42,656 nt of DNA from Leptospirales bacterium (GTDB taxonomy: Bacteria; Spirochaetota; Leptospiria; Turneriellales; JAOUFE01), in assembly GCA_040326155.1 (NCBI GenBank), contig JBEQLE010000036.1:1-42656 (forward strand). Direction: 5' to 3'. Each line of letters opens with the position of its first letter. Positions within the stretch are counted from its first letter, which is position 1. Below are positions 1-36,426 of the stretch, in pieces. The translations under genes were made by a program, and so were the position numbers. The notes under the pieces are model-generated. The model ran no database searches, was not told the DNA's origin, and worked only from the letters and a program-made list of their open reading frames with translations.

Positions 1-19
1 GCCGTAGGCGTTTGGCGCG

Positions 20-43
20 AGGGGGAAAACTTTCCCCCTTTTT
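20..43 (+). terminator. Hairpin plus T-run; likely terminator of an upstream unit or end of a REP-like element
   Basis: agggggaaa-ac-tttccccct inverted repeat followed by tttt; preceded by GC-rich gccgtaggcg at the window edge. Confidence 0.45.
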
Positions 44-276
44 GTGGAGCCTAGTTTTCCCAAGTGTTTAACCGGTATCGCTGGCTGCGTTTTGTTATAA
101 ATATTGCTTTTCACTGGAGATGTCTATATTATATCAACAAGGGTGAAGTGCTCTGGTTAGCCAGGGACTTAGTTAAATCGGAAGCAATTTACAATATTAG
201 AATATTATTATTTAGGAATTTACTTGCCAAAACCTGTCGGTTGTAGAATATTGACCTGGAAAATAAAATAATTCAT

Positions 277-282
277 AAGGAG
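277..282 (+). promoter_or_regulatory. Shine-Dalgarno site of dsrC
   Basis: AAGGAG 5 nt upstream of ATG at 288. Confidence 0.7.
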
Positions 283-287
283 AGTGT

Positions 288-623
288 ATGGCTACAATGG
301 AATTTCAAGGTACTGACTACGCAATAGATGAAGAAGGATACCTTACAAACCTGGAAGAGTGGAATGAAGAAATAGCAAAACATATGGCGGATAAAGAGAG
401 TATTGAGTTATCCGAAAGTCATTGGGAAGTTATTCATTTTTTACGAGAGTATTATGAGGAATATCAAATTGCCCCGATGGTTCGTATTTTAACGAAAGCG
501 GTAGGTAAAAAACTTGGACCGGAAAAAGGAAACAATAAATACTTATACGAGTTATTTCCCGAAGGGCCGGCTAAGCAAGCTTGTAAATTTGCAGGTTTAC
601 CAAAACCAACAGGTTGCGTTTAA
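288..623 (+). CDS. dsrC: DsrC sulfur-carrier protein (DsrC/TusE family, both C-terminal Cys present)
   Basis: 111 aa; DEEGYL, HWEVIHFLREYY, YLYELFP.GPAKQACKFAGLPKPTGCV (Cys-X10-Cys); first gene before dsrTMKJOP. Confidence 0.95.
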   Translation: MATMEFQGTDYAIDEEGYLTNLEEWNEEIAKHMADKESIELSESHWEVIHFLREYYEEYQIAPMVRILTKAVGKKLGPEKGNNKYLYELFPEGPAKQACKFAGLPKPTGCV

Positions 624-630
624 GGCTGTT

Positions 631-667
631 TCCGGGTTGAGCGTCCAAATATGATGTTTAACCCGGA
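631..667 (+). terminator. 15-bp stem-loop between dsrC and dsrT (partial terminator or mRNA stabiliser)
   Basis: tccgggttgagcgtc-caaatat-gatgtttaacccgga pairs fully with three G-U pairs; weak T-rich tail. Confidence 0.55.
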
Positions 668-696
668 TTATTGTATTAAATTTTTGCCTATTTATT

Positions 697-1221
697 ATGA
701 ATGAAACTGAATTGTATAATTGGTTAGCTACGCACAGAACGAAAATAGTTGATGAATGGACTTTGCAGGTAATGCCCGGAAGCCCTTCTGAACAACGAAA
801 CAGGTTTACAAATCCAATGTATTATACCATCCATCTTGAACTTGATCTGTTATACGGCAAAGTGTTGGAACGCAGTGAAGATCTTGACGATTATAAGACC
901 ACTCAACTTATGAAAATTCAGGCTTTGCACAATACCGAGGCAGACCAGGCTACGGCATTTTCCCATATTTTGAAAGAAATTCTGGAGAATGCGATAATGA
1001 AGGACGGGCTTGAAATTACCGTTTTGTCTCAACTTGATTTGCAGGTTCAACTTATGGCGGAAGCGGCATCTTTACAATTTATGAAAAACCGTGAAAAACT
1101 GGAAAGTATAAAACAAAAAGAACGTAATTCGCGTGTGTTTAGCGACCTTCCTCCCGACTCGGTTTGCCCGTCCTCGTTTTTACATAATACCCCTGAAAAG
1201 AGTATCGGGACTACTACATGA
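697..1221 (+). CDS. dsrT: DsrT (RsbRD N-terminal domain protein)
   Basis: KIVDEW...NRFTNPMYY, MKIQAL, ATAFSHILKEIL, REKLESIK pattern; stop overlaps dsrM start (ATGA), the canonical dsrT position. Confidence 0.85.
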   Translation: MNETELYNWLATHRTKIVDEWTLQVMPGSPSEQRNRFTNPMYYTIHLELDLLYGKVLERSEDLDDYKTTQLMKIQALHNTEADQATAFSHILKEILENAIMKDGLEITVLSQLDLQVQLMAEAASLQFMKNREKLESIKQKERNSRVFSDLPPDSVCPSSFLHNTPEKSIGTTT

Positions 1222-2210
1222 AAATTATTTTTTCTGTATTCGTTACTCTGCTTCTGGCGCTGGTCGCTTTTGCCGGCGTAGAATTTTTACAATTACATTT
1301 TGTGTTCGGGGTGGTAATACCTTATTTTGCTTTTTTGTTTTTTGTGTTCGGTTTTATTTTACGAGTGATTGGCTGGGCAAAGGCTCCGACTCCTTTTAAC
1401 ATAACGACTACGGCGGGACAACAAAAGTCCCTATCGTGGATAAAAAATGAAAATCTGGAAAATCCTCGAAATAGTGCCGGTGTATTTGGACGCATGTTTC
1501 TTGAAGTTTTCTTTTTTCGCTCTCTGTTTCGTAATACAACAGCGTATTTGAATAAGCGACAAAATCTGGGCTATGGTTCAGAAAAAACTCTCTGGCTGGG
1601 CGGACTTTTATTTCACTGGAGTTTCTTTTTTATATTTATTCGTCATCTGCGATTTTTTACCAACCCTCCTTTGTCTTTTGTCGGTTCCATGGAATCTATC
1701 GATGGGTTTATGCAGGTCGGCGTTCCTGTATTTTATTTCACCGATTTAATTTTACTGCTTACGGTAACGTTCCTGTTTTTACGACGGGTTTATCTGCCAA
1801 GAATAAAATATATTTCTCTTACCGCAGACTATTTTCCTTTACTATTAATATTTGCCATAGGTGTGAGCGGCGTAGCCATGCGGTATATAATAAGAGTTGA
1901 TATAATGTCGATTAAAACCATGACAATGAGTCTCGTTCACTTTAGTCCCGTGGTACCCGCAGGAATTCAATCTATTGTTTTCGTACATCTTTTTCTGGTC
2001 TGTGCACTATTTATCTATTTTCCAATGAGCAAGTTAATGCATATGGCGGGAGTATTTTTGAGCCCCACTAGAAATTTACAAGGCAACTCCAGGGAAAATC
2101 GTCATGTGAACCCCTGGAATTATCCTGTGAAAGTTCACCCTTACGATCATTATGAAGATGAATTTAGAGAACCGATGAAAAAAGCCGGCATTCCGGTGGA
2201 TAAGGAGTAG
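1218..2210 (+). CDS. dsrM: DsrM membrane b-type cytochrome (NarI/HmeC-like)
   Basis: Multiple TM helices; GQQKSLSWIK, FFRSLFRNT, LLFHWS..IRHLRFF, VHLFLV..YFPMSKLMHMAG, SPTRN. Confidence 0.95.
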   Translation: MKIIFSVFVTLLLALVAFAGVEFLQLHFVFGVVIPYFAFLFFVFGFILRVIGWAKAPTPFNITTTAGQQKSLSWIKNENLENPRNSAGVFGRMFLEVFFFRSLFRNTTAYLNKRQNLGYGSEKTLWLGGLLFHWSFFFIFIRHLRFFTNPPLSFVGSMESIDGFMQVGVPVFYFTDLILLLTVTFLFLRRVYLPRIKYISLTADYFPLLLIFAIGVSGVAMRYIIRVDIMSIKTMTMSLVHFSPVVPAGIQSIVFVHLFLVCALFIYFPMSKLMHMAGVFLSPTRNLQGNSRENRHVNPWNYPVKVHPYDHYEDEFREPMKKAGIPVDKE

Positions 2211-2212
2211 GT

Positions 2213-3844
2213 ATGGGTAAATTACCTGAGCCTGAAAAATTAAGCAAGGTCAATTACTCCACCCCGGATGTGGATTGGCTGGATCTGAAAACGACGTTTG
2301 AACCAGGTTCGTATTGTTACGGGGAAAAACCCAAGGGTGTGGAAATACTTGGACTGCCGAACCCGCGAGAGTGGAATCCCGCCGATGCAGACTGGAAGCT
2401 GGCACCGAACTGGAAAGAGACCATGAAAAGCGGAATGAAAACTCGCCTGGAAAGATTTCGTTCTTTGCAACTGTTTATGGACATTTGTGTTCGCTGCGGC
2501 GCTTGTTCCGATAAATGTCATTTTTACCTTGGTACCGGCGATGTAAAAAACATGCCCGTTTTACGAGCTGAACTTATGAGATCGGTTTACAGAAAAGAAC
2601 ATACGATTGGTGGAAAACTTCTCGGTAAACTGGCCAGCGCCCGTGAAATGGATGAGGAAGTTTTAAAAGAGTGGTATAAATATTTTTATCAATGTACCGA
2701 GTGTCGAAGGTGTTCAGTGTTTTGTCCTTATGGAATTGATACTGCCGAAATAACCATGCATGCTCGTGAGTTAATGCACGAAGTTGGCGTTGGTATTAAC
2801 TGGGTGGTTGAACCGGCCTCCAATAGTTTTAGAACGGGAAACCACCTCGGTTTAACACCTCATGCCATTACCAATAGTGTAGAAATGCTGGTTGAGGATA
2901 TTAAAGATATAACCGGTATCGATGTTAACCCTACTTTCAATCGGAAAGGGGCTGAAGTACTGTTTATTACTCCATCGGCGGACTTTTTTGCCGAACCCGG
3001 TATTTTTACCATGATGGGGTATATGCTTCTTTTTGAACACATTGGACTGGATTACACTTTAAGTACGTATGCATCGGAAGGCGGTAATTTCGGACTTTTT
3101 ACATCACATGAGATGATGAAAAGATTGAACTCTAAAATGTACGCAGAAGCCGAACGATTGGGAGTAAAATGGATTCTCGGGGGAGAGTGCGGACACATGT
3201 GGAGAGTCGTTCATCAATACATGGATACTCTGACCGGACCTGCGAACTTTCTGGAAACTCCCGTTTCGCCAATTACCGGAACTAAATTCGATTATGCAAA
3301 ACAAACTAAGTTTGTTCATATTGCAGAATTTACCGCCGACTTAATTCGAAATAATAAACTGAATCTTGATAAAAGCCGAAACAACCACAGAAAAGTTACA
3401 TTTCATGATTCTTGTAATGTTGCTCGTGGTATGGGAATGTTCGAAGAACCTCGATATATTCTAAATAATACAGTGAACGAATTTTACGAGATGTCCGATG
3501 AAACCATCCGCGAGAAAACGTTTTGCTGTGGAAGCGGATCGGGACTTAATACGAATGAATATATGGAAACTCGATTGAAAGGTGGATTTCCCAGAGCGAA
3601 CGCGGTAAAACATGTTCAAGAAGAACATGGTGTAAATCTTCTGACGGCGATATGCGCTATTGATCGTGCGGCATTTCCTCCTCTTCTGGATTATTGGACA
3701 CCGGGGGTAGATACAAGTGGTCTTCATGAATTAATAGGAAACGCACTTATTATGGAAGGGGAAATTACAAGAGACGTTGACCTGCGACAAGAACCGCTTG
3801 CGGCACCGCAAAACACCGGAGTTGAGAATGTACAACAAGACTAA
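2213..3844 (+). CDS. dsrK: DsrK, HdrD-like Fe-S/CCG catalytic subunit
   Basis: CVRCGACSDKC and CTECRRCSVFCP 4Fe-4S motifs; GECGH, FHDSC, FCCG, CAID. Confidence 0.95.
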   Translation: MGKLPEPEKLSKVNYSTPDVDWLDLKTTFEPGSYCYGEKPKGVEILGLPNPREWNPADADWKLAPNWKETMKSGMKTRLERFRSLQLFMDICVRCGACSDKCHFYLGTGDVKNMPVLRAELMRSVYRKEHTIGGKLLGKLASAREMDEEVLKEWYKYFYQCTECRRCSVFCPYGIDTAEITMHARELMHEVGVGINWVVEPASNSFRTGNHLGLTPHAITNSVEMLVEDIKDITGIDVNPTFNRKGAEVLFITPSADFFAEPGIFTMMGYMLLFEHIGLDYTLSTYASEGGNFGLFTSHEMMKRLNSKMYAEAERLGVKWILGGECGHMWRVVHQYMDTLTGPANFLETPVSPITGTKFDYAKQTKFVHIAEFTADLIRNNKLNLDKSRNNHRKVTFHDSCNVARGMGMFEEPRYILNNTVNEFYEMSDETIREKTFCCGSGSGLNTNEYMETRLKGGFPRANAVKHVQEEHGVNLLTAICAIDRAAFPPLLDYWTPGVDTSGLHELIGNALIMEGEITRDVDLRQEPLAAPQNTGVENVQQD

Positions 3845-4262
3845 AGTCTCGATTGGAATTCTACTGTTTTTGTGTTTAGCCTCCCTACCTTTCTGGCATT
3901 CGCTGATGCAAGACGGGGAAGACAGCGCGATAAAAAATCCCGTCATTTTGGCAACGGCGGGTGAAACCTGTGTCGAAGATAGAGCCTTCATGCGATCGAA
4001 TCATATGGTGTTATTGCACCAGTGGCGTGATGAGGTGGTTCGTGAAAACAAACGTGAGTATACCAACTCTCATGGAGAGCTCTTTCAAAAAAGTCTCAGC
4101 AAAACCTGTCTGGGGTGCCATTCTAATAAAAAAGAATTTTGTGAGACTTGTCATGCACAGGCCAGTGTAAAAGTAACCTGTTTTGACTGTCATTTACAAC
4201 CGGAGCAGATGACCGAGAAAAACAGACAAGAACCTTACTTTCACAAGAGCCGGGGGAATTAA
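3828..4262 (+). CDS. dsrJ: DsrJ triheme cytochrome c
   Basis: N-terminal TM; CVED..MRSNHM..L..WRD.VVR; three CxxCH (CLGCH, CETCH, CFDCH); ATG 3828 preferred over track start 3777. Confidence 0.93.
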   Translation: MYNKTKVSIGILLFLCLASLPFWHSLMQDGEDSAIKNPVILATAGETCVEDRAFMRSNHMVLLHQWRDEVVRENKREYTNSHGELFQKSLSKTCLGCHSNKKEFCETCHAQASVKVTCFDCHLQPEQMTEKNRQEPYFHKSRGN

Positions 4263-4263
4263 C

Positions 4264-5043
4264 GTGAAGTTCGATAATAAGGTAAACCGAAAAGAATTTC
4301 TAAAACTCACCGGCATCGCCGCGCTTATTGGAGTTGGCGGAAAAACAGGCTTTAGTTTATATGCTTCGGGTCAAGAACCTGAAACAGATTCGGATGAGAA
4401 TAAAAATAAAATTCGATATGGTCTTTTAATCGATACAAAAAAATGCCCACCCGATTGTACAGACTGTAGTGACATTTGCCACTCTAAACATAATGTACCT
4501 TCGTATAAGTCTAAAAAAATTGAAATTAAATGGATATGGAAAGAACCGGCTAAACACCTTTTTCCTGAAAATAACTGGGACTTAAAACCGGTAGCGGCCA
4601 AGAATGTTCCGTTGCTTACAGTGTGTAACCATTGTAAGAATCCCCCTTGTGTTCGAGTTTGTCCTACGCAGGCGACTTTTAAAAGAGACGATGGAATTAT
4701 TATGATGGATTACCACCGTTGTATTGGTTGCCGCTTTTGTATGGCTGGGTGCCCTTATGGCTCCCGAAGTTTTAACTATAAAGATCCGCGAAAAGGGTTA
4801 ACCGAACTAAACCCGGATTACCCTACAAGAACGACGGGAGTGGTTGAAAAATGTAATTTATGCGCCGAAAAAATTGGCGATGGTAGCTCTCCTTATTGTG
4901 TTGAAAAATGCTCCAAAGGCGCCATTATTTTTGGAAACTTGAATGACCCTGAAAGTGAAATTCGAAAAGCGATAGAACAAGATCATGTTCTTCGACGAAA
5001 AGCGGAACTGGGAACCGAGCCATCGGTTTTTTATAAAGTATAA
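4264..5043 (+). CDS. dsrO: DsrO periplasmic ferredoxin-like subunit (NrfC family)
   Basis: Tat-like NRKEFLK leader; four Cys clusters incl. CNHCKNPPCVRVCP and CIGCRFCMAGCPYG. Confidence 0.93.
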   Translation: MKFDNKVNRKEFLKLTGIAALIGVGGKTGFSLYASGQEPETDSDENKNKIRYGLLIDTKKCPPDCTDCSDICHSKHNVPSYKSKKIEIKWIWKEPAKHLFPENNWDLKPVAAKNVPLLTVCNHCKNPPCVRVCPTQATFKRDDGIIMMDYHRCIGCRFCMAGCPYGSRSFNYKDPRKGLTELNPDYPTRTTGVVEKCNLCAEKIGDGSSPYCVEKCSKGAIIFGNLNDPESEIRKAIEQDHVLRRKAELGTEPSVFYKV

Positions 5044-5061
5044 CGGAATACGAGGAATACA

Positions 5062-6210
5062 ATGATAGAGAAGGCTTTCGAAGGTGGAAAAAAATACAAA
5101 CTCTGGCTGTTGTTTTTGTTGGCAATTATTGCCGCCGGTATTTACCAATACTCCATACAGTTAGAAGAAGGACTGAGCATTACCGGAATGAGCCGGGATG
5201 TTTCCTGGGGTTTTTACGTCGCGAATTTTACTTTTTTTGTAGGAGTCGCAGCATCGGCAGTAATGCTGGTTATTCCTTATTATTTGCACCATTATAAAAA
5301 GTTTTCACAACTTGTTATATTCGGCGAATGGCTTGCCGTCGGTTCCGTGGTGATGTGTATTCTGTTTATTTTCGTCGATATGGGGCAACCGCAAAGAGCG
5401 TTGAATATATTGTTGCATCCAACTCCGAATTCAGTTTTGTTCTGGGACGTTATTGTCTTGTTTGGATACCTTGCCATAAATCTATTTGTCGCCTGGGTGA
5501 CGTTACGCAAAGAAAAAGCAAACCTCGAAATATCTAAACTGATAAAATTCCTTATATTGTTGTCTATTCCCTGGGCAATTGCAATACATACGGTAACCGC
5601 ATTTTTATATTCGGGTCTACCCGGACGACACGCATGGCTCACCGCAATTATGGCGCCAAGGTTTCTTGCCTCGGCTTTTGCCGCCGGACCGGCTCTCTTA
5701 ATCTTGCTGCTTATGGTGGTTAAAAAACTTACCTATTTCAAGCCCGAAAAAGAAGCGTTCGGGACGCTTGCAAAAATTATGCTCTATGGAATGCTGGTGA
5801 ATATCTTCTTTTATGGGCTGGAAATTTTTACAGCGTTTTATAGTAATATTCCTTCGCATAAACACACCTTGACTTATCTATTTTTCGGACTGAACGGTTA
5901 CAGCAAACTTGTACCGTATGTGTGGACTTCGGTGGCGTTTGGGTTTGTGTCGGTTTTTATGTTGCTGTTTCCCGCCATTCGGGCAAACCATAAAACTCTG
6001 GCAGTAGCCGCCACGTTGATTTTTTTCTCAACATATCTCGATAAAGGTCTGGCTCTGGTAATTGGCGGATTTATCCCTTCACCGTTGGAGACTATTACCG
6101 AATATACGATTACCGGTCCCGAATTTACAATATCAGCAGGAATATGGGCTATTGGAGCGCTGCTCGTAACCCTGGCATATCGTATGACACTGAATGTTCG
6201 CCAAAGCTAA
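5062..6210 (+). CDS. dsrP: DsrP polytopic membrane subunit (NrfD/PsrC family)
   Basis: TGMSRDVSWGFYVANFTFFVGVAASA, DMGQP, SIPWAIAIHTVTAF, APRFLASAF; about 10 TM; RBS gagga. Confidence 0.95.
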   Translation: MIEKAFEGGKKYKLWLLFLLAIIAAGIYQYSIQLEEGLSITGMSRDVSWGFYVANFTFFVGVAASAVMLVIPYYLHHYKKFSQLVIFGEWLAVGSVVMCILFIFVDMGQPQRALNILLHPTPNSVLFWDVIVLFGYLAINLFVAWVTLRKEKANLEISKLIKFLILLSIPWAIAIHTVTAFLYSGLPGRHAWLTAIMAPRFLASAFAAGPALLILLLMVVKKLTYFKPEKEAFGTLAKIMLYGMLVNIFFYGLEIFTAFYSNIPSHKHTLTYLFFGLNGYSKLVPYVWTSVAFGFVSVFMLLFPAIRANHKTLAVAATLIFFSTYLDKGLALVIGGFIPSPLETITEYTITGPEFTISAGIWAIGALLVTLAYRMTLNVRQS

Positions 6211-6478
6211 AGAGCTTGCTTACCGGTTTTATATAGGTGGAAAAACCTATACTTACGAAATTAGTAGAAACAAAAGACAATTTAATCTGACTAAAGGGCT
6301 GTATAATCCGAAAAAATGATATAATTGTCACTTTTTTTGGCGTTTGCTTACATAAAAGTGTATTTGTACTTTACGTATGGCCTAATAAATAGAGGTTGTT
6401 TTTACATTGAGGAATTGAATGTTAATTCAAGACCTTAATAAACGAATACAAGTTAAATAAATAGTATTGGAAGACAAA

Positions 6479-6697
6479 ATGGTTGAAGGTTACATTGAAA
6501 CATTGTCAGATAAAGAGATATTGCAAGAACTTAACGGCGGGCCGGATAATTTTGTTCCAGGTCATTATAAAATCTTCGTAGAAGAAGGAAAGAAAAGAAA
6601 CCTGAAATTTGTTTATAATGAACAAGATCTTGCAAATACAGTAAAACCTGGTCAGGATACGCGACCTCTATTTAAAAAATCGGAAAAAAAACGATAA
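6479..6697 (+). CDS. Small hypothetical protein
   Basis: ORF with protein-like composition; start uncertain (TTG 6467 or ATG 6479). Confidence 0.5.
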   Translation: MVEGYIETLSDKEILQELNGGPDNFVPGHYKIFVEEGKKRNLKFVYNEQDLANTVKPGQDTRPLFKKSEKKR

Positions 6698-6730
6698 TAA
6701 ATTTTTTCATTCCGCAGCGGGAAAACAGCG

Positions 6731-7264
6731 ATGTTTAAATCAATTGAGTCGCTTAAACCTGCTCCAGCTGTAATTTTCGTCACAATCCCCTTTCTGGGGG
6801 CCATTCTACTGCTTTTTTTTATACCCATCTATGCCGCTTCCTGGAATTCCATACAGTACATTTTACCCGTAGTATACATTGCCCTTTATCCCGCTTTTTT
6901 ATATTGGTATAGTTTTTCATATACAACTTATGCTTTATGTAAAGAGAAAGGATTTTTCCCCGGCCATCTCGGTATTATTAAATATGGGTTTCTGTTTTTC
7001 CTGGCGTATTCCTTTGGTATACTTTTGTTGGTTTTAACCGGTATGGACCTGGAAACATATGAGTATCGATTTCCTCTGTTTTTGGCCCATTTGCCCCTGA
7101 TTTTATGGTGGTTGTATATGCTCTCTTTTAATTCTAAAGCCCTGTTGGGTCTTGAAGCAAATAAAAAGGTTGAAAAACCGGGGCCGTTAATGGCCACATT
7201 TGCTCTTGTTCCTCTAACTGTCTATTTTGTGCAAAAACGGTTATATGCCTTATTGCAAAAATAA
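6731..7264 (+). CDS. Hypothetical integral membrane protein
   Basis: 177 aa with about 5 hydrophobic segments. Confidence 0.7.
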   Translation: MFKSIESLKPAPAVIFVTIPFLGAILLLFFIPIYAASWNSIQYILPVVYIALYPAFLYWYSFSYTTYALCKEKGFFPGHLGIIKYGFLFFLAYSFGILLLVLTGMDLETYEYRFPLFLAHLPLILWWLYMLSFNSKALLGLEANKKVEKPGPLMATFALVPLTVYFVQKRLYALLQK

Positions 7265-7367: not shown

Positions 7368-8288
7368 ATGAAGTTTTTCCGAATATTAGATAAACCGGTA
7401 CATATTTCCATATTAAAGCCATCCATATTTTTAGCTCTTTTTATTATGATTTTGAACGATCATTTTTTGAAACATTCGGAATTATTACCGGGGGTAGTAA
7501 CCGGGAAAATCAGTGATCTTGCATTTTTATATTTTGCGCCTATTTCAGCCGCATGGCTTTTTAAAGTTAAAAAGGTGAGAGGTCTGGTCCTTACTCTATT
7601 TGTATTTGCAACTGGCTTTGTATTTTTAAATACATCTGTTCCGTTTTCACTATTTATAGAAAAACTGTTTTTTTCATTTGGGTTTCCAACCCGGTTATGG
7701 CCGGATGCAACAGATTTACTTGCACTGTTGGTTATACCTTTTTCCGTAAAAGCTTGTTTTACAAATGGTGAATTTAATTTTTCACGACGTCGAAATCTGG
7801 CAAAATATACACTTGTGAGTGTATCCATTTTAGCCTGTTTATATACTTCGCCCGGAAGGCCATCAACCCACACACCGGTTTACATGGACTGGGTAAATTT
7901 TAGAGAGTCTGTAAAAATAAAAAAACCCCAGTCGATCGAAGTTCGTGGAAAAATTTACATTAAAGATAATTATCTATTTGTGAACGAACCTAATAAAGGC
8001 ATACATATTTACGATATAACAGATAAGGAAAATCCTGTAGCCGTTAGTTTTATAGAACTATATGGAAATGTAGATTTAGCCGTACAATACAAGACGTTGT
8101 ATGCGGACAGTTTTACTGATTTGCTTATTTTCGACATATCGAATCCGGAAGAACCAGTTTTTGTACGAAGAATCAATGACCAATTTGAGTATAATCCCGT
8201 GCAAGCGGCCCCACCCGGCGCAGTTATTAACGAATACGATTATGAAGATGCCTCCCAGGGTGTAATTATCGGGTGGGAAGAAAAATGA
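7368..8288 (+). CDS. Membrane protein with C-terminal LVIVD-repeat module
   Basis: N-terminal TM domain (LNDHFLK..TGKISD); C-terminal GKIYIKDNYLFVNE..KGIHIYDI..GNVDLAV..LYADSF.DLLIFDISNP. Confidence 0.75.
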   Translation: MKFFRILDKPVHISILKPSIFLALFIMILNDHFLKHSELLPGVVTGKISDLAFLYFAPISAAWLFKVKKVRGLVLTLFVFATGFVFLNTSVPFSLFIEKLFFSFGFPTRLWPDATDLLALLVIPFSVKACFTNGEFNFSRRRNLAKYTLVSVSILACLYTSPGRPSTHTPVYMDWVNFRESVKIKKPQSIEVRGKIYIKDNYLFVNEPNKGIHIYDITDKENPVAVSFIELYGNVDLAVQYKTLYADSFTDLLIFDISNPEEPVFVRRINDQFEYNPVQAAPPGAVINEYDYEDASQGVIIGWEEK

Positions 8289-9253
8289 AATTTTATTTTA
8301 AAAAGGGAACAATTATTTCTGTTTTTCTTTTACTGTTGTTTGCAGGCCTGAGCTGTAAAGGTACCAGTAAAGTGAATCGGTCTGGTAAAAGCGGTTCGTT
8401 TGCCCGAATGAATATTGTCGGTGATTATTTATATACTTTGAACAAGTCTAAATTAACAGTTCATAGAATTTCAGATCCTTACAGCCCGGTAAAAGTTAGA
8501 GAAGTTGAAATAGATGATACCATTGAAACGTTGTTTCCTGTAGAAGATAAACTTTTTATAGGTTCGACAAATGGAATGTTCATTTACGATATTGCAAAAC
8601 CGGAGAGACCGACTCTTCTTGGCCAATACAGCCACTTTACCGCGTGCGACCCTGTTGTTACCCAAAATAATTATGCATATATTACATTGAGAAGTGGAAC
8701 GGGATGCCAAAACAGTAGAAACGAACTACATATTATTGATATAAAGAATATTGTAAAACCTGAACTTGTTAAAGAATATAGAATGAAAAACCCTCATGGC
8801 CTGGCCATCGATAACGATTTACTTTTTATTGCTGAAGGTGATTATGGGTTAAAAATTTTCGATGTCAAAAACCCGTATGAGATAAAACGTTTAAAACATA
8901 TTGAAAATATGAATGCATATGATATTATATTACAAAATTCTTACTTATATGTAATTGGAAAAGATGGTTTGTATATATACGATTACCGTTATTTTCCGGA
9001 AAGGCCGATTCACAAAGTAAGCAAAATTTCCATTCGAGAGCCATTTACCGTCCGGTTTAAAAATAAATTTAAAGACATCAGCATATTTAAAATTATATTG
9101 ATTTTTTATTCTTTTATGCTTACTCTTTTACTTTGGAAAGCATGGGGGGCGAAATCGGCAAAAAAGAGAAAAGTATTTAAAATTATTTTAATCGTCTTAG
9201 TTGCGGCACCGCTGGCGCTGCTTGCCGTGCTTTTTATAGTTTTTCTGACTTAG
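8285..9253 (+). CDS. LVIVD-repeat lipoprotein with two C-terminal TM helices
   Basis: Lipobox-like GLSC; GSFARM, ETLFP, CDPVV, YAYITLRSG, LHIIDI repeats; ATG 8285 overlaps upstream stop (ATGA). Confidence 0.8.
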   Translation: MKFYFKKGTIISVFLLLLFAGLSCKGTSKVNRSGKSGSFARMNIVGDYLYTLNKSKLTVHRISDPYSPVKVREVEIDDTIETLFPVEDKLFIGSTNGMFIYDIAKPERPTLLGQYSHFTACDPVVTQNNYAYITLRSGTGCQNSRNELHIIDIKNIVKPELVKEYRMKNPHGLAIDNDLLFIAEGDYGLKIFDVKNPYEIKRLKHIENMNAYDIILQNSYLYVIGKDGLYIYDYRYFPERPIHKVSKISIREPFTVRFKNKFKDISIFKIILIFYSFMLTLLLWKAWGAKSAKKRKVFKIILIVLVAAPLALLAVLFIVFLT

Positions 9254-12419: not shown

Positions 12420-14252
12420 TCAGATTTCAGTTAATTTTTCTTTCAGGCCTTTGATACGATCTCTTGCTTCTTGAATTTCCTCTTTGTTTGTTTCTAATTT
12501 AATATACTGCTGGAACTTTTGAATTGCTTCTTTGTATTGTTCCAATTCACCAAGAGCTAAACCCCAGTTATAAAAAGCGTTTTTATTTTCAGGTTCAAGT
12601 TCGATTACTTTTCTATATTTTTCAATCGCTTCTTCATTACGATCTTGAGCATAAAGAGCAACTCCCCACGCTAAATAGGCATTCCCGTTTTGCGGGTCAA
12701 GTTCGGTTGCTTTTTTATATTTTTCGATAGCTTCATCGTTGCGATCCAATTCACTGAGAGACAACCCCCAATTGTAATAAGCGTTTAGATAGTCTGGTTC
12801 AATTTCGCTCGCTTTTTTATATTTCTCTATGGACTCTTCATAGCGGCCAAGATGAAAAAGAGTAACGCCCCAGTTGTTAAAAGCCGCTTCAGAGTCAGGG
12901 TTAAGTTTAGTCGCTTTTTTATATTTTTTTATCGCTTGTTCGTAAAGTTGCATATTGTCAAGCGCATCTCCCCAGGCTAAATAGGCATCTGAATCTTTTG
13001 CATCGATTCGTATTGTTTCTTTATACTTTTCAATGGCTTTTTCATATTCACCCAGTTCATCCAGAGCCAGTCCCCAATTGTAATAAGCAAGAACATTGTT
13101 TGGTTCGAGTTTAATTACCTGTTTATATTTTTCAATAGCCTTTTCATATTGCCCTGAGATAAAATAAACGTTTCCCCAGCTGTTGTGAACAGTTCCCGAA
13201 TTCGGGTCGAGCTTCACCGCTTGTTTGTAAATTTGAATGGCGCGATCATAGAGTCCCAGATCTGCAATGGCATCACCCCAGGCCAGAAAAGCGTCAAAAT
13301 TCTCCGGATCGATTTTGGTAATTTTTTCATATTGTTCAGCCGCTTTTTCGTATTCACCCAGCCCACCGAGAGCCAGACCCCAATTGTAATAAGCGTCAAG
13401 ATTATTCGCATTTAGTTCGATCGCTTTTTTACTATATTCAATTGACTCTTTGTAACGCCCCATTTCATAGAGAGTAACTCCTATATTGGTGAAGGCGCTC
13501 GTATAATTTGGAACAAGTGCAATTGCTTTTTCATACTTTTCTATCGCTTGTTCATACCGACCCAATTCTGCGAGAGCCAAACCCCAATTATAATACCCAT
13601 CTGCATCGTTCGGATTCATCTCCAGTGCTTTTTTGTACTTTTGAATGGCTTCTTCAAACCGTCCCATATGTAAAAGAGTAACACCCCAGTTGTTTTGAAT
13701 ATATGCCAGATCAGGGTTCAGCTTGCTGGCTTTTTCGTATTTCTGAATGGCCTCTTTATAAAGTCCCTGATCATCCAGGGCATCTCCCCAGGCTAAATAC
13801 GCATCAGCATCTTTCGGATCGATAGTCAGTACTTTTTTGTATTTTTGAATCGCTTCATCGTATAGCCCCATGTTGCTGAGAGTAATTCCCCAATTGTAAT
13901 AAGCGAAAATATCTTCCGGATCAAGTTGAATAACTTTTTTATATTTTTCAATGGCTTCCTGGTAACGCCCGAGTTCGGTTAGAGATAATCCCCAACCGAA
14001 ATAAGCGTCAGGGCTATTTGGATATAATTTGAGTACTTTTTTAAATTTCTCAATGGCTTTTTCGTACAGTCCCAGTTCATAAAAATCAACGCCGGCATCA
14101 TAATAGGCTTCTGCGGGGTCTGTACTTTTTTTAGCATCTTCATCATTGAATGCAATATTTTCTTGTGGCAGCCTGTCTAGAAGCTCAGTCTGACCGAACA
14201 AAGGATGGGTTGCAATAAGAGCAGATATAGCAAGAGGTAATATTTTATACAT
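12420..14252 (-). CDS. Secreted TPR protein with 16 tandem 34-aa repeats
   Basis: Signal peptide MYKILPLAISALIATHPLFG; repeats of AYYNWG.AL..LG.Y..AI.KY.K...LDP. Confidence 0.92.
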   Translation of the reverse strand: MYKILPLAISALIATHPLFGQTELLDRLPQENIAFNDEDAKKSTDPAEAYYDAGVDFYELGLYEKAIEKFKKVLKLYPNSPDAYFGWGLSLTELGRYQEAIEKYKKVIQLDPEDIFAYYNWGITLSNMGLYDEAIQKYKKVLTIDPKDADAYLAWGDALDDQGLYKEAIQKYEKASKLNPDLAYIQNNWGVTLLHMGRFEEAIQKYKKALEMNPNDADGYYNWGLALAELGRYEQAIEKYEKAIALVPNYTSAFTNIGVTLYEMGRYKESIEYSKKAIELNANNLDAYYNWGLALGGLGEYEKAAEQYEKITKIDPENFDAFLAWGDAIADLGLYDRAIQIYKQAVKLDPNSGTVHNSWGNVYFISGQYEKAIEKYKQVIKLEPNNVLAYYNWGLALDELGEYEKAIEKYKETIRIDAKDSDAYLAWGDALDNMQLYEQAIKKYKKATKLNPDSEAAFNNWGVTLFHLGRYEESIEKYKKASEIEPDYLNAYYNWGLSLSELDRNDEAIEKYKKATELDPQNGNAYLAWGVALYAQDRNEEAIEKYRKVIELEPENKNAFYNWGLALGELEQYKEAIQKFQQYIKLETNKEEIQEARDRIKGLKEKLTEI

Positions 14253-14763: not shown

Positions 14764-15819
14764 ATGAACGAAAATGCAAAAAAGTTTCAACAAAACCTAA
14801 AAACAGTAGCCAAGGGTAAAAAAGGCTCCCGGGATATGACCCGTGACGAGGCTCGCTTTTGCCTTACCTTTGTTTTCAGCGATGAAGTTCACCCGGTTCA
14901 GGCCGGAGCTTTGTTTACAGCGATGCGTTTTAAAGGCAGCACCGAAGAGGAACTTCATGGATTTCTGGATGCTCTGGAAAATGGCTCGGACTCCATCCTT
15001 GTTAAAGCGAAAACGGATAGTGAAATGAATCCGCTTTTCACTGCAAACTCTCCCTACGATGGTCGAACAAAAAGTCTCAACCTCTCTGTTGCCGCTTCGC
15101 TGGTGTGCGCCGCATCGGGAGTTCCGGTTTTACTGCACTCTTCTACCGGCCTGCCGCCCAAAAAAGGAGTAACCGCCGCTCCTGTTTTGGAGCGTCTTGG
15201 CATTCCTGTAATGTTGAGTGGCCCTGAGGTTGCACAAAACGTAGAAACAAAGAATTTTGGATTCATACATGCTTCGCAATTTAACTATCCCATTGAAAAA
15301 CTTCGAAGATGGCGAGAGATCTTACTGTACCGTACTATTTTGCATACTCTGGAGGTTTTAAACAATCCAGGGCGGGCGAAAAAAAGAATAATTGGCGTTG
15401 CCCATGACCACCTTGCCGGTAAATTTGCTCGCATTGCCGCCGCGCGCGGTGCCGAACATGTTTTGGTTTTTCCCGGCTTAGACGGGGCCGATGAGTTGGC
15501 GATGCAAAAAACAGTCGCCGTTGAGGTTAAAAACGGGCAAGAAAGCAAAATTACTTTAGACCCGAAAGAGTATGGTTTTTCATATTCAGATAAATTCGAC
15601 CCCGAAAATGCAAACACTGCGGCAAAAATAACCGAAGAGGTTTTACAAGGTGAGGGCGAAAAATATATTGAAGCTGTAATTTACAATGCAGGTATTCGAA
15701 TTTATGTTGCAAAAAATAATTTAACGATACAAACAGCAATGGATGAAGCCAGGGAAGTATTAAAGTCAGGTAGAGCTCACGAACTTTTAAACTGCCTGCG
15801 CGGACCAAATTACAGATAA
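14764..15819 (+). CDS. TrpD-like glycosyltransferase family 3 protein (YbiB/DsrS type, probably not a true TrpD)
   Basis: VAKGKKGSRDMT..EA, QAGALFTAMRFKG...EEL.GF, GVPVLLH, YNAG; PYDG replaces the TrpD GTGGDG PRPP-binding loop. Confidence 0.75.
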   Translation: MNENAKKFQQNLKTVAKGKKGSRDMTRDEARFCLTFVFSDEVHPVQAGALFTAMRFKGSTEEELHGFLDALENGSDSILVKAKTDSEMNPLFTANSPYDGRTKSLNLSVAASLVCAASGVPVLLHSSTGLPPKKGVTAAPVLERLGIPVMLSGPEVAQNVETKNFGFIHASQFNYPIEKLRRWREILLYRTILHTLEVLNNPGRAKKRIIGVAHDHLAGKFARIAAARGAEHVLVFPGLDGADELAMQKTVAVEVKNGQESKITLDPKEYGFSYSDKFDPENANTAAKITEEVLQGEGEKYIEAVIYNAGIRIYVAKNNLTIQTAMDEAREVLKSGRAHELLNCLRGPNYR

Positions 15820-15827
15820 GGTAAACA

Positions 15828-16601
15828 ATGGAAAAAAAGAGTAAAAAAGTATATTTAATCGGCGCTGGCCCAGGTGACCCTGAATTGATAACTTTAAAAG
15901 CCATTCGCGCTATTGAAGAGTCAGAAGCTATTTTATATGACCACTTAGTAAACCCAAAAATATTGGAACATGCCCGACCCGACACTAAGTTAATTTATGT
16001 GGGCAAAAAAAAAGGCCATCACAGCGTTCCCCAGGAAGAGATCAACCAAATGCTTGTAGAACAAGCCAATAAATACAGTTGCGTTGGACGCCTGAAAGGA
16101 GGGGACCCTTTTATATTTGGCCGAGGCGGTGAAGAAGTAGAGTTTTTAGCCCGTCATGGATTTTCCATTGAGGTGATTCCCGGTATAACTTCTGCCAGTG
16201 GAGCAGGCTCTAATATTTTGTTGCCGTTAACTCACCGAAAATATGGTTCCGAAGTTGTGTTTATAACCGGTCATAAGAAAAAAGACGGCGACTACAATCA
16301 ATTTACTGCCTATGACTTAACCAATAAAACCATGATTATTTACATGGGTCTAACCGCCATTGGGTCCATTCAAAAAGAACTTTGTAAACGAGAAAATAAT
16401 TGTAATTTACCGGTAGCCATTATAGAAAAAGCGACTTTACCCGAAGAAAGAGTCGTTCGAGGCAAACTATTATCTATTGAAAAACTAATAGAAAAAGAAA
16501 AAATTCAGGCCCCGGCGCTTATTATAATCGGCGAAGTGGTCTCTTTCTTAGATGAAATCGATAAAATAAAAAAGGAAGTCGCACAGATTATTCACGAGTA
16601 A
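15828..16601 (+). CDS. cobA: Uroporphyrinogen-III C-methyltransferase (SUMT; CobA/SirA/CysG-A)
   Basis: VYLIGAGPGDPELITLKA, LYDHLV, RLKGGDPFIFGRGGEE, VIPGITS, PLTHR, IYMG. Confidence 0.93.
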   Translation: MEKKSKKVYLIGAGPGDPELITLKAIRAIEESEAILYDHLVNPKILEHARPDTKLIYVGKKKGHHSVPQEEINQMLVEQANKYSCVGRLKGGDPFIFGRGGEEVEFLARHGFSIEVIPGITSASGAGSNILLPLTHRKYGSEVVFITGHKKKDGDYNQFTAYDLTNKTMIIYMGLTAIGSIQKELCKRENNCNLPVAIIEKATLPEERVVRGKLLSIEKLIEKEKIQAPALIIIGEVVSFLDEIDKIKKEVAQIIHE

Positions 16602-16638: not shown

Positions 16639-17073
16639 ATGGAAGAAAAGAAAAGTATTAACGGAGAGCATTTTTACGATATAGAGATCGCCGGGTCAAT
16701 GGAACGTTTAAGCAAGCTGTTTCAAACCAAAGGGGAATTTCCACCGGTAAACGCGGCGACTCTGGAAGCTATGTACGATTATTTAACACAAAAAGTAAAA
16801 TTCCCTTTTCAAGGTGAAATTGCCGCGTTGGATGAAAATCCTCCAGGGCGTCAAATTGTGAATGTTACCGTAAATGGAGTTTTCGACCCGGATGACACCG
16901 ATGAGCTGAATCGGTACGGACTTGTGTGCGAGGTTTTTAACGGAAAGGAAACTTTCCACATGCCGTTATCCGAAATTGTCATTAAGCAAGAAGATGCGAG
17001 CTTTCAGTTTGTCGAAGATTATTGCGTCTGGTATTGGGAAGTAAAAGAGGGTCACGGCGACGAGCCTTCATAG
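16639..17073 (+). CDS. CcbP-like calcium-binding family protein
   Basis: Acidic; YL...VKFPFQG, YGLVCEV, MPLSEI, VEDYCVW pattern; RBS ggag. Confidence 0.65.
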   Translation: MEEKKSINGEHFYDIEIAGSMERLSKLFQTKGEFPPVNAATLEAMYDYLTQKVKFPFQGEIAALDENPPGRQIVNVTVNGVFDPDDTDELNRYGLVCEVFNGKETFHMPLSEIVIKQEDASFQFVEDYCVWYWEVKEGHGDEPS

Positions 17074-24034: not shown

Positions 24035-24070
24035 ACCAACAGCTTCTATTTGTTCTATTGAATGTCCAGA

Positions 24071-24410
24071 GAATTTTTTTTGCCCGTAAAGTACCACGAG
24101 CGGGTGCCCAAAAACCACGCTTTTTGGGTGCGAACAACTTTAAATGAACATCGAGCGGAACGACATAAAAAAACCGTAGGATTTTTCTGTGCTTAAACGG
24201 AAACCACAGGATTTTTTTGTGCCTCAATAATACCACGAAGCGGTCGAAAAAAAACGACGTTTTTTTTCGAAAATATCTTTAAACAGCAATCGAACGTAGG
24301 AACTTCGTCGGGTTTTCGTACGAAAAACCCGACAGACCATCGTCCCTTTCGCTACCGCTATCGGGACTCAAGCCAAAAACCGCAGGATTTTTTTGTGTCC
24401 TTAAAAAAAC
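24071..24410. repeat. Structured intergenic repeat cluster
   Basis: AAACCRYAGGATTTTTYTGTG at 24171, 24201 and 24377; duplicated ~75-bp unit at 24071 and 24210; hairpins at 24106-24129, 24244-24270, 24307-24333. Confidence 0.7.
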
Positions 24411-27649: not shown

Positions 27650-27941
27650 TATACACTCCTGTCGGTCAATTCCAGTGAAAACTAAATCTATATAAAAAAG
27701 ACATTATTTAGTACCTTTATTATAAGTTACCAATTGGCAATCAAAAAAAAATTTGTAAGCAGAAAAGTCAGGTATTTTCGTAGATGTCGGGAAATTGAAT
27801 ATTGTTTTGCCTGATTAATGCCATTTAAGAAAGAAAAATCTTTTGTCGTAACGCATAACGAACGAATAACGAACGGATACCAACGACCTTGAAAACCGAT
27901 TTTAAAGTTTACATGACCTCTATAGTTGTAATAATGTTGTT

Positions 27942-36196: not shown

Positions 36197-36358
36197 ATAG
36201 TTTTTCCATTACATATACAACTTACCATGCCTTGGTACGATGTCTACAATAATATGTTGGTTTTTGTAAAAAGTGTCGCCTAACTCCCAGAGGGAATTTG
36301 AACAATTTTCGATTCTGACTGTATATTGACGTTTAGATTTGAATTTAACGGATAACAT

Positions 36359-36408
36359 AATCGGTAAAAACTCCGCCGGTTTTCAGTCCGGCGAAGAGTA
36401 TACCGATT
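36359..36408 (-). terminator. Long imperfect hairpin just downstream of 36427-37077
   Basis: aatcggta..actc.cgccgg-ttttcagt-ccggcg..gagt.taccgatt. Confidence 0.55.
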
Positions 36409-36426
36409 TGTCAACGTGTATTGCGA

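Follow-up and report, generated by a model that had tools for sequence, protein, structure and literature searches.

The dsr genes of Allochromatium vinosum run in the order dsrABEFHCMKLJOPNRS, and those of Chlorobaculum tepidum run dsrNCABLEFHTMKJOPVW. The dsr cluster of green sulfur bacteria is reportedly a mosaic, for which Klier et al. cite Sander et al. (2006).

Klier et al. (2024, ISME J, PMC11406059) described reverse-Dsr MAGs of Turneriellales and Leptonemataceae, and the part of their supplement drawn on here records DsrAB, C, EFH, L and MKJOP, and no DsrD, in two Turneriellales MAGs. The DiSCo calls given there for these two MAGs are oxidative for A, B, C, E, F, H, O and L, and reductive for J, P, M and K. 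Five rdsrAB-bearing Leptospirae MAGs appear in the relevant sections of a later study (ISME Commun 2025, PMC12687941). The original prediction had treated its Leptospirales-like group as one not classically known for dissimilatory sulfur metabolism, a premise that these two reports, in the parts cited, put out of date. As mixed-type Leptospirae Dsr was already published in 2024-2025, the locus described below adds another example rather than a discovery.

The locus lies in a stretch of 42.7 kb, the whole of which we call the window. We think it is probably a native mosaic locus of an uncultured Leptospira-class spirochaete, most likely oxidative, and either a retained intermediate or an old acquisition common to its whole lineage.

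Layout of the dsrC-dsrT-dsrMKJOP locus

Positions 288-6210 hold ORFs for DsrC, DsrT, DsrM, DsrK, DsrJ, DsrO and DsrP, all (7/7) co-directional and intact. The predicted features of the locus and its upstream region are:

21..37, + strand: hairpin resembling a terminator, with a T-run after it, 5' of the locus (consensus scan only)
224..252, + strand: sigma-70-like promoter match, TTGCCA, 17 nt, AATATT, 36 nt 5' of dsrC (9/12 positions)
288..623, + strand: dsrC, 111 aa, oxidiser-type, arm cysteines C100 and C110; TIGR03342 168 bits (cut-off 53.5)
631..667, + strand: 15-bp hairpin with a T-rich tail, immediately 3' of the dsrC stop codon; candidate partial terminator
697..1221, + strand: dsrT, 174 aa, RsbRD_N-like (globin-fold-like), function unassigned; 4-nt overlap with the dsrM start
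1218..2210, + strand: dsrM, 330 aa, membrane dihaem cytochrome b (NarI-like) subunit; NF038037 495 against 300
2213..3844, + strand: dsrK, 543 aa, cytoplasmic HdrD-like catalytic subunit; NF045796 716 against 400
3828..4262, + strand: dsrJ, periplasmic trihaem cytochrome c; NF038038 143 against 100
4264..5043, + strand: dsrO, 259 aa, periplasmic ferredoxin-like FeS subunit; NF045797 306 against 200
5062..6210, + strand: dsrP, 382 aa, NrfD-family integral membrane quinone-interacting subunit; NF045798 452 against 350

Six of the products exceed their NCBIfam cut-offs by a wide margin, the exception being DsrT, and the five subunits of DsrMKJOP, encoded together, each pass an equivalog cut-off. 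A complete dsrCTMKJOP had been claimed, and it is there: seven ORFs at the predicted coordinates, with family models matched and DsrT recognised by position and by its jackhmmer family. The lengths claimed for DsrC, DsrM and DsrK are those of the translations.

The dsrM product aligns to positions 2-320 of the 320 in its model. DsrK has two CxxCxxCxxxC motifs (CVRCGACSDKC and CTECRRCSVFC) and a CCG domain (FCCGSGSG; Pfam CCG 22.7, threshold 20.6), and DsrJ has three CxxCH haem motifs (CLGCH, CETCH and CFDCH). The mechanical dsrJ ORF opens at TTG 3777; the family match begins at residue 18, which is ATG 3828, the likely start. The DsrO N-terminus (NRKEFLKLTG) resembles a Tat signal.

Only 287 nt are visible 5' of the locus, and the terminator-like hairpin within them suggests that dsrC opens a new transcription unit. 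The candidate promoter is weak, because promoter-like matches in the region (22) barely exceed the mean of shuffled controls (17.1). The same operon is found on four other Leptospira-class MAG contigs (L001-L004). Of these, L001 and L004 have a structure comparable to the hairpin and T-tract 3' of dsrC; in L002 and L003 it is less distinct. The hairpin 3' of dsrC probably sets the expression of dsrC above that of dsrT and the membrane complex. Past dsrP come a 76-aa ORF and genes for a membrane protein and for LVIVD-repeat proteins.

An oxidiser-type DsrC beside reducer-like DsrT and DsrK

The DsrC product scores 162 bits with PF04358 as well as 168 bits with TIGR03342. TusE was considered and rejected, as the equivalog NF008562 gives 133.5, under its cut-off of 191. 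The protein ends in QACKFAGLPKPTGCV, with C110 penultimate and C100 ten residues earlier; DsrC paralogues of three other loci (L070, L075 and L080) lack the last cysteine. The strings quoted in the original prediction, YQIAP and TKAVGKKLGPEKGNNKYLYELFPEGPAKQAC, are both in the translation.

The best match among solved structures is 1yx3 ('DsrC', 176 bits), gapless and about 70% identical (76/109 counted), which we take to be the A. vinosum DsrC. The reducer DsrC chains 2v4j, 2xsj, 3or1 and 3or2 (Desulfovibrio/Desulfomicrobium-type) score 94-110 bits and have a 7-residue gap against the window DsrC. This segment is kept in 20/20 Leptospira-class, oxidiser and transitional DsrCs and is missing from 14/14 reducer-locus DsrCs, that is, those encoded beside the most similar reducer-type DsrMKJOP. 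Identity to the window DsrC is 68-77% in the segment-bearing group (69-72% for named sulfur oxidisers, 75-77% for L001-L004) against 48-56% in the reducer loci. Organism names were attached to 14 of the 119 non-self DsrC matches listed: four Spirochaetia MAGs, Sulfuritortus, Thiobacter, Ca. Parabeggiatoa, a Burkholderiales MAG, three Betaproteobacteria MAGs, Magnetococcus, a Nitrospinota MAG and a Thermodesulfovibrionales MAG. Classical sulfate reducers were not among these 14. The gapless 1yx3 match, the oxidisers among the named relatives and the retained segment all bear out the claim of an oxidiser-like DsrC.

In the DsrC phylogeny, the reducer DsrCs form a clade (100/98, branch 0.43) with the window outside it, and the Leptospira-class DsrCs sit in a basal polytomy, not nested in the proteobacterial clade. 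In AU tests on the short DsrC alignment, neither a clade of Leptospira-class DsrCs with reducers (p-AU 0.23) nor one with Beta-/Gammaproteobacterial oxidisers (p-AU 0.49) was rejected.

DsrK points the other way. Among the best 80 of 383 relatives on genome contigs, the closest are the four Spirochaetota MAGs L001-L004 at 72-81%; next come Moorella/Neomoorella, Syntrophobacteraceae, Desulfarculaceae and others, with identities of 62-69%. The window itself is not among the species representatives, where the top DsrK identity is 81%; in the protein collection it is 91%, on an 8.9-kb contig. Of the 119 matches listed, 16 have organism names, and each of these belongs to Bacillota, Deltaproteobacteria, SAR324, Acidobacteriota or Poribacteria, with no Beta- or Gammaproteobacterial oxidiser among the 16. 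In the tree the window and L001-L004 form a clade (100/99). It groups at 99/98 with L005, a SAR324 MAG and a Deltaproteobacteria MAG, and all of these fall within a larger group of 42 rows (100/100) to which cultured reducers also belong. Four more distant DsrKs fall outside this group; they serve as an outgroup without labels, representatives at 39-47% identity carrying no names. By sequence, DsrK is thus reducer-type, an assignment that rests on nearest neighbours in a comparison with no labelled proteobacterial or Chlorobi oxidiser DsrK.

The dsrT ORF had no NCBIfam match, and its Pfam RsbRD_N score of 22.6 bits lies just under the gathering score of 24.3; the relatives in L004 and L005 score 56 and 71, and the protein atlas places DsrT with RsbRD_N clusters at high confidence. 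A local jackhmmer search found the family in 75 of 81 sources (the 80 loci and the window). As it sits on the same strand directly 5' of dsrM or dsrK in 72 of these 75, we regard the 174-aa ORF as the position-conserved dsrT. The reducer-like character claimed for DsrT and DsrK agrees with the DsrK neighbours and tree and with the finding of the DsrT family beside reducer dsrM and dsrK.

The mosaic that had been proposed, an oxidiser-type DsrC with a reducer-like DsrT and DsrK, is therefore real at the level of sequence, DsrT and DsrK lying among reducers and 'transitional' lineages such as the SAR324 MAG. It could be a true chimera, in which dsrC was swapped by lateral transfer from a proteobacterial sulfur oxidiser into a reducer-type operon. 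Since some reducer loci (L037, L039, L045, L058 and L059) have the same dsrC-dsrT-dsrMKJOP order, a like-for-like replacement is conceivable, and the 69-72% identity to Beta-/Gammaproteobacterial DsrC fits it. Lateral dsr transfer is also invoked by Klier et al. (2024, PMC11406059), in the portions relevant here, and by Diao et al. We nevertheless think a swap quite unlikely: the Leptospira-class DsrCs branch outside the proteobacterial clade, and the GC3 of dsrC (0.29), the lowest of the locus, is host-like and not foreign. L005 pairs a KQAC-type DsrC with a DsrK of the window's clade and, because it has the same combination, the pairing must predate the spirochaete lineage. 'Chimeric' thus need not imply a recombined operon, and the mix in L005 and the grouping with SAR324 DsrK fit the published 'transitional' scenario.

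Host lineage and direction of the pathway

The host had been described as Leptospirales-like, and this is borne out by the nearest DsrK, DsrC and citrate synthase, which come from MAGs labelled Spirochaetia, Turneriellaceae or Leptospiraceae, the labels being those of the submitters. Citrate synthase was the only housekeeping gene compared. The window's copy is 79% identical to that of L001, itself 7 kb from the L001 dsr operon, and its best named matches are Spirochaetia and Spirochaetota MAGs; outside dsr-bearing MAGs, Nitrospinota and Magnetococcales (67-69%) are as close as anything else. The window has no rRNA or tRNA genes, and of core genes it contains just infA and citrate synthase. 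L003, a Turneriellaceae contig, encodes a FlaB-type flagellin.

A mixed picture would also arise if a foreign dsr fragment had been fused at 6210-6730 to a contig of a spirochaete, or if a foreign contig had been placed in the wrong bin. A 520-nt AT-rich gap follows dsrP, citrate synthase is the sole gene past 6210 with a counterpart in the L001-L004 flanks compared, and, of the seven segments, 1-6000 is the one whose tetranucleotide profile correlates least with the remainder of the window (r = 0.947). This value is only just under the 0.952-0.981 of the other six, however, and the GC3 of the dsr genes, dsrC included, overlaps that of the remaining window, so composition gives no sign of the chimeric assembly that had been a concern. 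Four independent contigs labelled Spirochaetota, 9.7 to 224 kb long, carry the operon too, in the neighbourhood of genes such as rpsI/rplM, flagellin, purL and citrate synthase. The window and L001 both link the operon to citrate synthase, and so apparently does another relative: its DsrC, DsrK and citrate synthase are each assigned to a contig with a listed length of 152,416 bp. Divergence from L001 is similar for DsrK (81%) and citrate synthase (79%). An artefact is highly improbable.

In the 42.7-kb window searched we found no dsrAB, dsrEFH, dsrL, dsrD, sat, apr or sox, absences that tell little about the genome as a whole. Because dsrAB, dsrEFH and dsrL are absent from the window, we infer the oxidative direction from the relatives and from the type of DsrC. 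In L003, dsrE2, dsrE, dsrF, dsrH and a TauE/SafE exporter gene follow straight after dsrP. Among the best 80 of 383 relatives dsrEFH occurs in just two loci, L003 and L005, both in the window's DsrK clade, and the L005 locus has dsrEFH-AB and a DsrL-like gene. The possible sulfur oxidation of the original prediction is plausible in the light of the L003 locus and of a literature that calls such MAGs oxidative.

The type of DsrC alone cannot fix the direction, because some 'mixed' genomes combine a DsrC of oxidative type with a DsrAB called reductive, as the part of Klier et al. (2024, PMC11406059) cited here describes. The organism might thus be a sulfite, sulfate or sulfur reducer or a disproportionator, with a conservative form of DsrC and the locus acting as a terminal DsrC-trisulfide reductase, as in Desulfovibrio and Moorella. 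DsrT and DsrMKJOP do cluster with reducers, the NCBIfam equivalogs carry sulfate-reduction names, and the AU test leaves a DsrC sister to reducer DsrCs unrejected. Diao et al. record Spirochaetota MAGs with reductive-looking gene sets that bear dsrD, but these belong to a different class, UBA4802. The published Leptospirae MAGs, in the portions of the two reports used here, have no dsrD and carry dsrEFH, sometimes together with dsrL (PMC11406059, PMC12687941). The L003 operon is coupled to dsrE2-EFH and a sulfite-exporter family gene, and the window DsrC retains the segment that the reducer-locus DsrCs lack. A reductive role seems unlikely.

In the oxidative, reverse-Dsr pathway that we consider most likely for the lineage, DsrE2/DsrEFH would pass sulfane sulfur to DsrC, the mobile sulfur-carrying substrate, and rDsrAB/DsrL would oxidise the sulfur to sulfite, with dsrAB, dsrEFH and dsrL presumably located elsewhere in the genome. 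In cytoplasmic DsrK, the CCG-bound FeS centre would act on the arm cysteines C100 and C110. DsrMKJOP would accept electrons from DsrC thiol/trisulfide chemistry. DsrK may exchange electrons with the quinone pool through the haems b of DsrM, and the complex may be coupled through DsrJOP to the periplasm and to a second quinone site. The mosaic itself would be a retained evolutionary intermediate or an old acquisition, and neither a recent splice nor an assembly artefact.

Comparison with known systems

Green sulfur bacteria, compared by gene order, resemble the window in combining oxidiser-type core proteins with dsrT and a reducer-like DsrMKJOP. The Chlorobi genes form one contiguous cluster, whereas the window has C-T-MKJOP alone, with a hairpin upstream, unrelated genes downstream and no adjoining dsrAB, dsrL or dsrEFH. 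Chlorobi sequences appear neither in the best 80 loci (of 383) nor among the 119 best DsrK matches listed.

The A. vinosum DsrC is about 70% identical to the window's, gapless and with the same C-terminal arm, and the five-subunit DsrMKJOP is common to both. In contrast, the window DsrK groups with reducers, and its named relatives include no proteobacterial oxidisers.

The reducers (Desulfacinum infernum L018, Desulfocarbo indianensis L049, Desulfoferrobacter suflitae L016 and Neomoorella L009-L014) have DsrKs 62-68% identical to that of the window and share with it DsrT 5' of dsrM or dsrK, the subunit set and the motifs. Their loci differ in DsrC, which has KGAC where the window has KQAC, lacks the 7-residue segment and is 48-56% identical. 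None of the reducer loci has dsrEFH.

The closest likeness is to the reverse-Dsr Leptospirae MAGs. In L003 dsrEFH follows dsrP, which it does not in the window, and DsrT is scored absent from the two Turneriellales MAGs in the part of the Klier et al. supplement used here, while L001-L003 have a divergent DsrT that only an iterated profile detects. These MAGs match the window in lineage, judged by nearest relatives, and in operon order and, in the same part of that supplement, they likewise combine an oxidative DsrC with reductive DsrM, DsrK, DsrJ and DsrP.

Gene content and relatives of the dsr locus

Seven tightly packed open reading frames (ORFs), all in one direction, fill window positions 288-6210. 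The original prediction read them as a complete dsrCTMKJOP set, and this reading held: six score well over curated NCBIfam cut-offs in profile searches, and dsrT was recognised by an iterated family search and its position.

Genes of the dsr locus (forward-strand coordinates; profile, score and cut-off)
288-623, DsrC: TIGR03342, 168 against 53.5
697-1221, DsrT: iterated family search and position
1218-2210, DsrM: NF038037, 495 against 300
2213-3844, DsrK: NF045796, 716 against 400
From 3828, DsrJ: NF038038, 143 against 100
Following DsrJ, DsrO: NF045797, 306 against 200
Ending at 6210, DsrP: NF045798, 452 against 350

The likely start of dsrJ is the ATG at 3828, because the family match opens at residue 18 of the mechanically called ORF. 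In translation, DsrC ends in …QACKFAGLPKPTGCV, which holds both arm cysteines, DsrK has two ferredoxin-type motifs and FCCGSGSG, and DsrJ has three CxxCH motifs. Solved structures gave no match for DsrK or DsrT. The 111-aa protein was also considered as TusE, of tRNA thiolation, but its score of 133.5 for the TusE equivalog stays below the cut-off of 191, it has both cysteines and it lies among dsr genes; it is thus a true DsrC.

A DsrK scan of genome contigs matched 399 stretches and gave 383 relatives, of which the best 80 loci were kept (L001-L080). The first four are from metagenome-assembled genomes (MAGs) labelled Spirochaetota, and dsrC, a DsrT-like ORF and dsrMKJOP stand in identical order in all four.

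Closest loci (identity of DsrK to that of the window; DsrT-like ORF, that of the window being 697-1221)
L001, Spirochaetia bacterium: 81%; 8409-8945
L002, Spirochaetia bacterium: 79%; 2734-3333
L003, Turneriellaceae: 78%; 8213-8899
L004, uncultured Leptospiraceae: 72%

The 174-aa ORF between dsrC and dsrM matched no NCBIfam family in the profile search and scored 22.6 for Pfam RsbRD_N, below the threshold of 24.3; the protein atlas placed it in RsbRD_N clusters (0.90). A local iterated search found its family in 75 of 81 sources, directly 5' of dsrM or dsrK in 72 of the 75. Judged by family and position, it is dsrT. The versions in L004 and L005 (the latter from a groundwater bacterium) pass the RsbRD_N threshold; those of L001-L003 match no Pfam family and are detectable by iterated profile only. 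Of the 75 family members, 63 retain the cysteine of the …Y(M/V)xCRE motif; it is replaced in L001-L003, L005 and the window (there by N), and a cysteine lies close to the C-terminus in the window and L001-L004. These comparisons indicate that DsrT is fast-evolving in this Leptospira-class lineage, and HMM surveys may therefore score it absent in such genomes. It is scored absent in two Turneriellales MAGs in the supplement of Klier et al. 2024 (PMC11406059).

Consensus scans gave the following signals around dsrC, which are suggestive only.

Candidate transcription signals (window coordinates)
21-37: terminator-like hairpin
224-252: weak promoter match
631-667: 15-bp hairpin with T-rich tail, directly 3' of dsrC

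L001 and L004 have similar hairpins with T-tracts 3' of dsrC; in L002 and L003 the structure is less clear. We infer that dsrC opens the transcription unit and is itself partly insulated from dsrT-MKJOP. Scans for Rfam families and tRNAs gave no matches in the window.

Types of DsrC and DsrMKJOP

An oxidiser-like DsrC beside a reducer-like membrane complex had been predicted, and both halves agree with the comparisons made here. Among solved structures, DsrC best matches 1yx3, named 'DsrC' (176 bits, gapless, 76/109 residues identical), presumably the Allochromatium vinosum entry. The Desulfovibrio- and Desulfomicrobium-type DsrABC chains (2v4j, 2xsj, 3or1 and 3or2) score 94-110 bits, with a 7-residue gap opposite GPEKGNN of the window protein, and 1sau scores 115 bits. 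The best 119 non-self matches in a large protein collection include 14 with organism names: four Spirochaetia MAGs, Sulfuritortus calidifontis, Thiobacter aerophilum, Ca. Parabeggiatoa, a Burkholderiales MAG, three Betaproteobacteria MAGs, Magnetococcus, a Nitrospinota MAG and a Thermodesulfovibrionales MAG.

In an alignment that included 22 DsrC-family ORFs from the loci, the 7-residue segment was present in 20/20 Leptospira-class, oxidiser and transitional DsrCs, and in 0/14 two-cysteine DsrCs of reducer loci. The former are 68-77% identical to the window protein, the latter 48-56%. The separate DsrC phylogeny proposed with the original prediction places the window outside the 14 reducer-locus proteins, which form the starred clade (100/98, branch 0.43). 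Which group is sister to it the tree does not settle: the alignment has only 112 columns, and neither grouping is rejected by the AU test, with p 0.23 for 'Leptospira-class plus reducers' and p 0.49 for 'Leptospira-class plus Beta/Gamma oxidisers'. By similarity and indel, DsrC is of oxidiser type; the tree favours neither side. Three Syntrophobacteraceae-type loci (L070, L075, L080) have a 109-aa DsrC-like paralogue upstream of dsrM, adjoining dsrMKJOP, that ends in …TGYPLM and lacks the penultimate cysteine.

For DsrK, the best locus after the four spirochaete MAGs is that of L005, an unclassified groundwater bacterium (69%), and the next among the best 80 of 383, at 62-68%, are from Thermoanaerobacteraceae, Moorella/Neomoorella, Syntrophobacteraceae, Desulfarculaceae and similar groups. 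The 119 best protein matches include 16 with organism names, from Clostridia/Bacillota, Moorella/Neomoorella, Deltaproteobacteria, SAR324, Syntrophobacteraceae, Acidobacteriota, Poribacteria, Thermodesulfobacteriota, Desulfobacterales, Syntrophomonadaceae and Desulfitispora; no proteobacterial oxidiser is among these 16.

In a careful 46-row DsrK tree, the window and L001-L004 form one clade (100/99), which joins L005, here sister to the spirochaetes, a SAR324 MAG and a Deltaproteobacteria MAG at 99/98. A tight group of 42 rows (100/100) contains the window clade and the cultured reducers, with four more distant DsrKs outside it, and a quick 90-row tree agrees. Inside this group the tree gives the window clade no firm place. 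The outgroup consisted of unlabelled full-length DsrKs (39-47% identity) from an exhaustive representative search. Seven were used or considered (P0362, P0363, P0370, P0371, P0376, P0377 and P0378), six from single-member clusters and P0370 from a three-member cluster, none with an organism label; P0363 was aberrant, with a branch length of 4.26 and odd composition. Judged by nearest neighbours, in a comparison that holds no labelled oxidiser DsrKs, DsrMKJOP and DsrT are of reducer type.

Host and genomic setting

The host had been read as Leptospira-like, and L001-L004 as the closest DsrK loci agree with this, as do the relatives of the window's citrate synthase (37254-38558). This protein is 79% identical to that of L001; among its relatives with an organism name, Spirochaetia and Spirochaetota MAGs rank highest, followed at 66-69% by Nitrospinota, Nitrospirota, Magnetococcales and Alphaproteobacteria. 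Linkage of dsr and citrate synthase recurs, since one relative has DsrC, DsrK and citrate synthase all on contigs listed at 152,416 bp.

The operon is flanked by ordinary host genes in L001-L004, among them purL and citrate synthase (L001), molybdenum-cofactor genes and a FlaB-type flagellin (L003; it scores 506 bits against a solved flagellin and 383 bits against 'FlaB1' 6pwb), and rpsI and rplM (L004). In a synteny comparison beyond the operon, citrate synthase is the one gene that the window shares with L001-L004. A chimeric assembly was considered and found no compositional support: the tetranucleotide correlation to the rest of the window is 0.947 for segment 1-6000 and 0.952-0.981 for the other six, and the GC3 ranges of the dsr genes and the rest overlap. 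Relatives, host-gene flanks, citrate synthase linkage and composition together led us to conclude that this is a native operon of an uncultured Leptospira-class lineage; the species representatives do not include the genome of the window.

Other genes of the window ((-), reverse strand)
6467-6697 and 6731-7264: small ORF and membrane ORF, no family match
7368-9253, downstream of the dsr locus: two adjoining LVIVD-repeat proteins, 306 and 326 aa
9280-12321 (-): 1013-aa protein in no Pfam/NCBIfam family; alpha-2-macroglobulin-like clusters in the protein atlas (0.86-0.87, a lead only), which gave no useful taxa when it was used as a host probe
12420-14252 and 17068-20559: large TPR proteins
14764-16601: TrpD-like glycosyltransferase-family-3 gene, below the TrpD cut-off, adjoining a uroporphyrinogen-III C-methyltransferase (CobA/CysG C-terminal type, 303 bits)
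26456-29420: HD-GYP-type phosphodiesterase (HD_5), divergent from a response-regulator-SpoIIE phosphatase
23021-24118, 29518-31101, 31591-33114 and 35456-37077, near the preceding pair: ORFs with no family match
38574-38792 (-), just after citrate synthase: infA, translation initiation factor IF-1, 96 bits
39259-39495: small SHOCT-domain ORF
41947-42656 (-): MntA-like nucleotidyltransferase antitoxin, 47 bits against a cut-off of 60; beside it, cut off by the contig end, an incomplete ORF that carries an addiction-module antitoxin domain

Uroporphyrinogen-III C-methyltransferase catalyses the first step to sirohaem, the cofactor of DsrAB.

Direction of the pathway and the published record

Pfam/NCBIfam and ORF searches of the 42.7-kb window found no dsrAB, dsrEFH, dsrL, dsrD or dsrN. 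The genes that decide direction sit outside it, and the evidence comes from its relatives. Directly 3' of dsrP, L003:14528-17209 carries dsrE2, dsrE, dsrF, dsrH and a TauE/SafE sulfite-exporter-family gene. A single cluster, L005:8416-21160, holds dsrT-MKJOP-C-EFH, a DVU0298-family HEAT protein, dsrA, dsrB, an 82-aa ORF and a DsrL-like gene; the 82-aa ORF has no Pfam match and is therefore not recognisably DsrD. These two are the only loci of the 80 with dsrEFH, and both lie within the window's DsrK clade. L004 has a DsrN-like amidase 5' of dsrC. In L003, molybdenum-cofactor biosynthesis genes flank the dsr locus on both sides.

Electron and sulfur flow in this lineage is probably oxidative. 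From established knowledge of Dsr systems, sulfane sulfur would pass through DsrE2/DsrEFH to DsrC, and rDsrAB with DsrL would oxidise it to sulfite, to be exported or oxidised further. DsrC would shuttle between DsrAB and DsrK, its two arm cysteines being the target of the CCG-bound cluster of DsrK; the haems b of DsrM would carry electrons between DsrK and the quinone pool, with DsrJOP as an additional periplasm-facing branch.

The mosaic requires no recent splice. L005 has the same pairing of a KQAC-type DsrC with the window's DsrK clade; the SAR324 MAG belongs to the clade by its DsrK. This fits the published transition from reductive to oxidative Dsr. Reductive or bidirectional use of Dsr by the lineage is a less probable alternative. 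A bolder reading, which we consider improbable as a whole, takes the Leptospira-class module for an intermediate that has survived from the change of reductive into oxidative Dsr, an oxidiser-grade DsrC served by reducer-grade DsrT/DsrMKJOP, runnable both ways as conditions dictate and with the lineage-specific, fast-evolving DsrT perhaps helping to set direction. Such spirochaetes would then oxidise sulfur, or reduce or disproportionate sulfite or sulfur, depending on conditions.

A probably oxidative pathway agrees with Klier et al. 2024 (PMC11406059), who place Spirochaetota in oxidative 'group one' and state that these 'showed many mixed predictions' and that DsrT is among their genes. In their tables, DsrAB, C and EFH are present and DsrD is absent in three MAGs, two of Turneriellales and one of Leptonemataceae. 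The two Turneriellales MAGs have complete MKJOP and DsrL (DsrK and DsrL are absent in the Leptonemataceae row); DiSCo types J, P, M and K of these two as reductive, and A, B, C, E, F, H, O and L as oxidative. A 2025 paper in ISME Commun (PMC12687941) reports rdsrAB in five Leptospirae MAGs, mentions three such MAGs 'at site 4.1 in July', and argues against binning error. In Diao et al. 2023 (PMC10591310), Spirochaetota of other classes have reductive-looking or oxidative-looking sets.

The original interpretation is thus right in substance and not new, because lineage, gene set and mixed typing already stand in PMC11406059 and PMC12687941, as does the presence of DsrT; no new question is opened. 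Reverse Dsr in Leptospira-class spirochaetes adds to the organisms cycling reduced sulfur in sediments and groundwater, and informs how oxidative Dsr arose out of the reductive pathway. To these published MAGs the window adds a further example, well assembled over 42.7 kb and with its intact operon linked to housekeeping genes, in which the C-T-MKJOP module occurs separate from dsrEFH and dsrAB.
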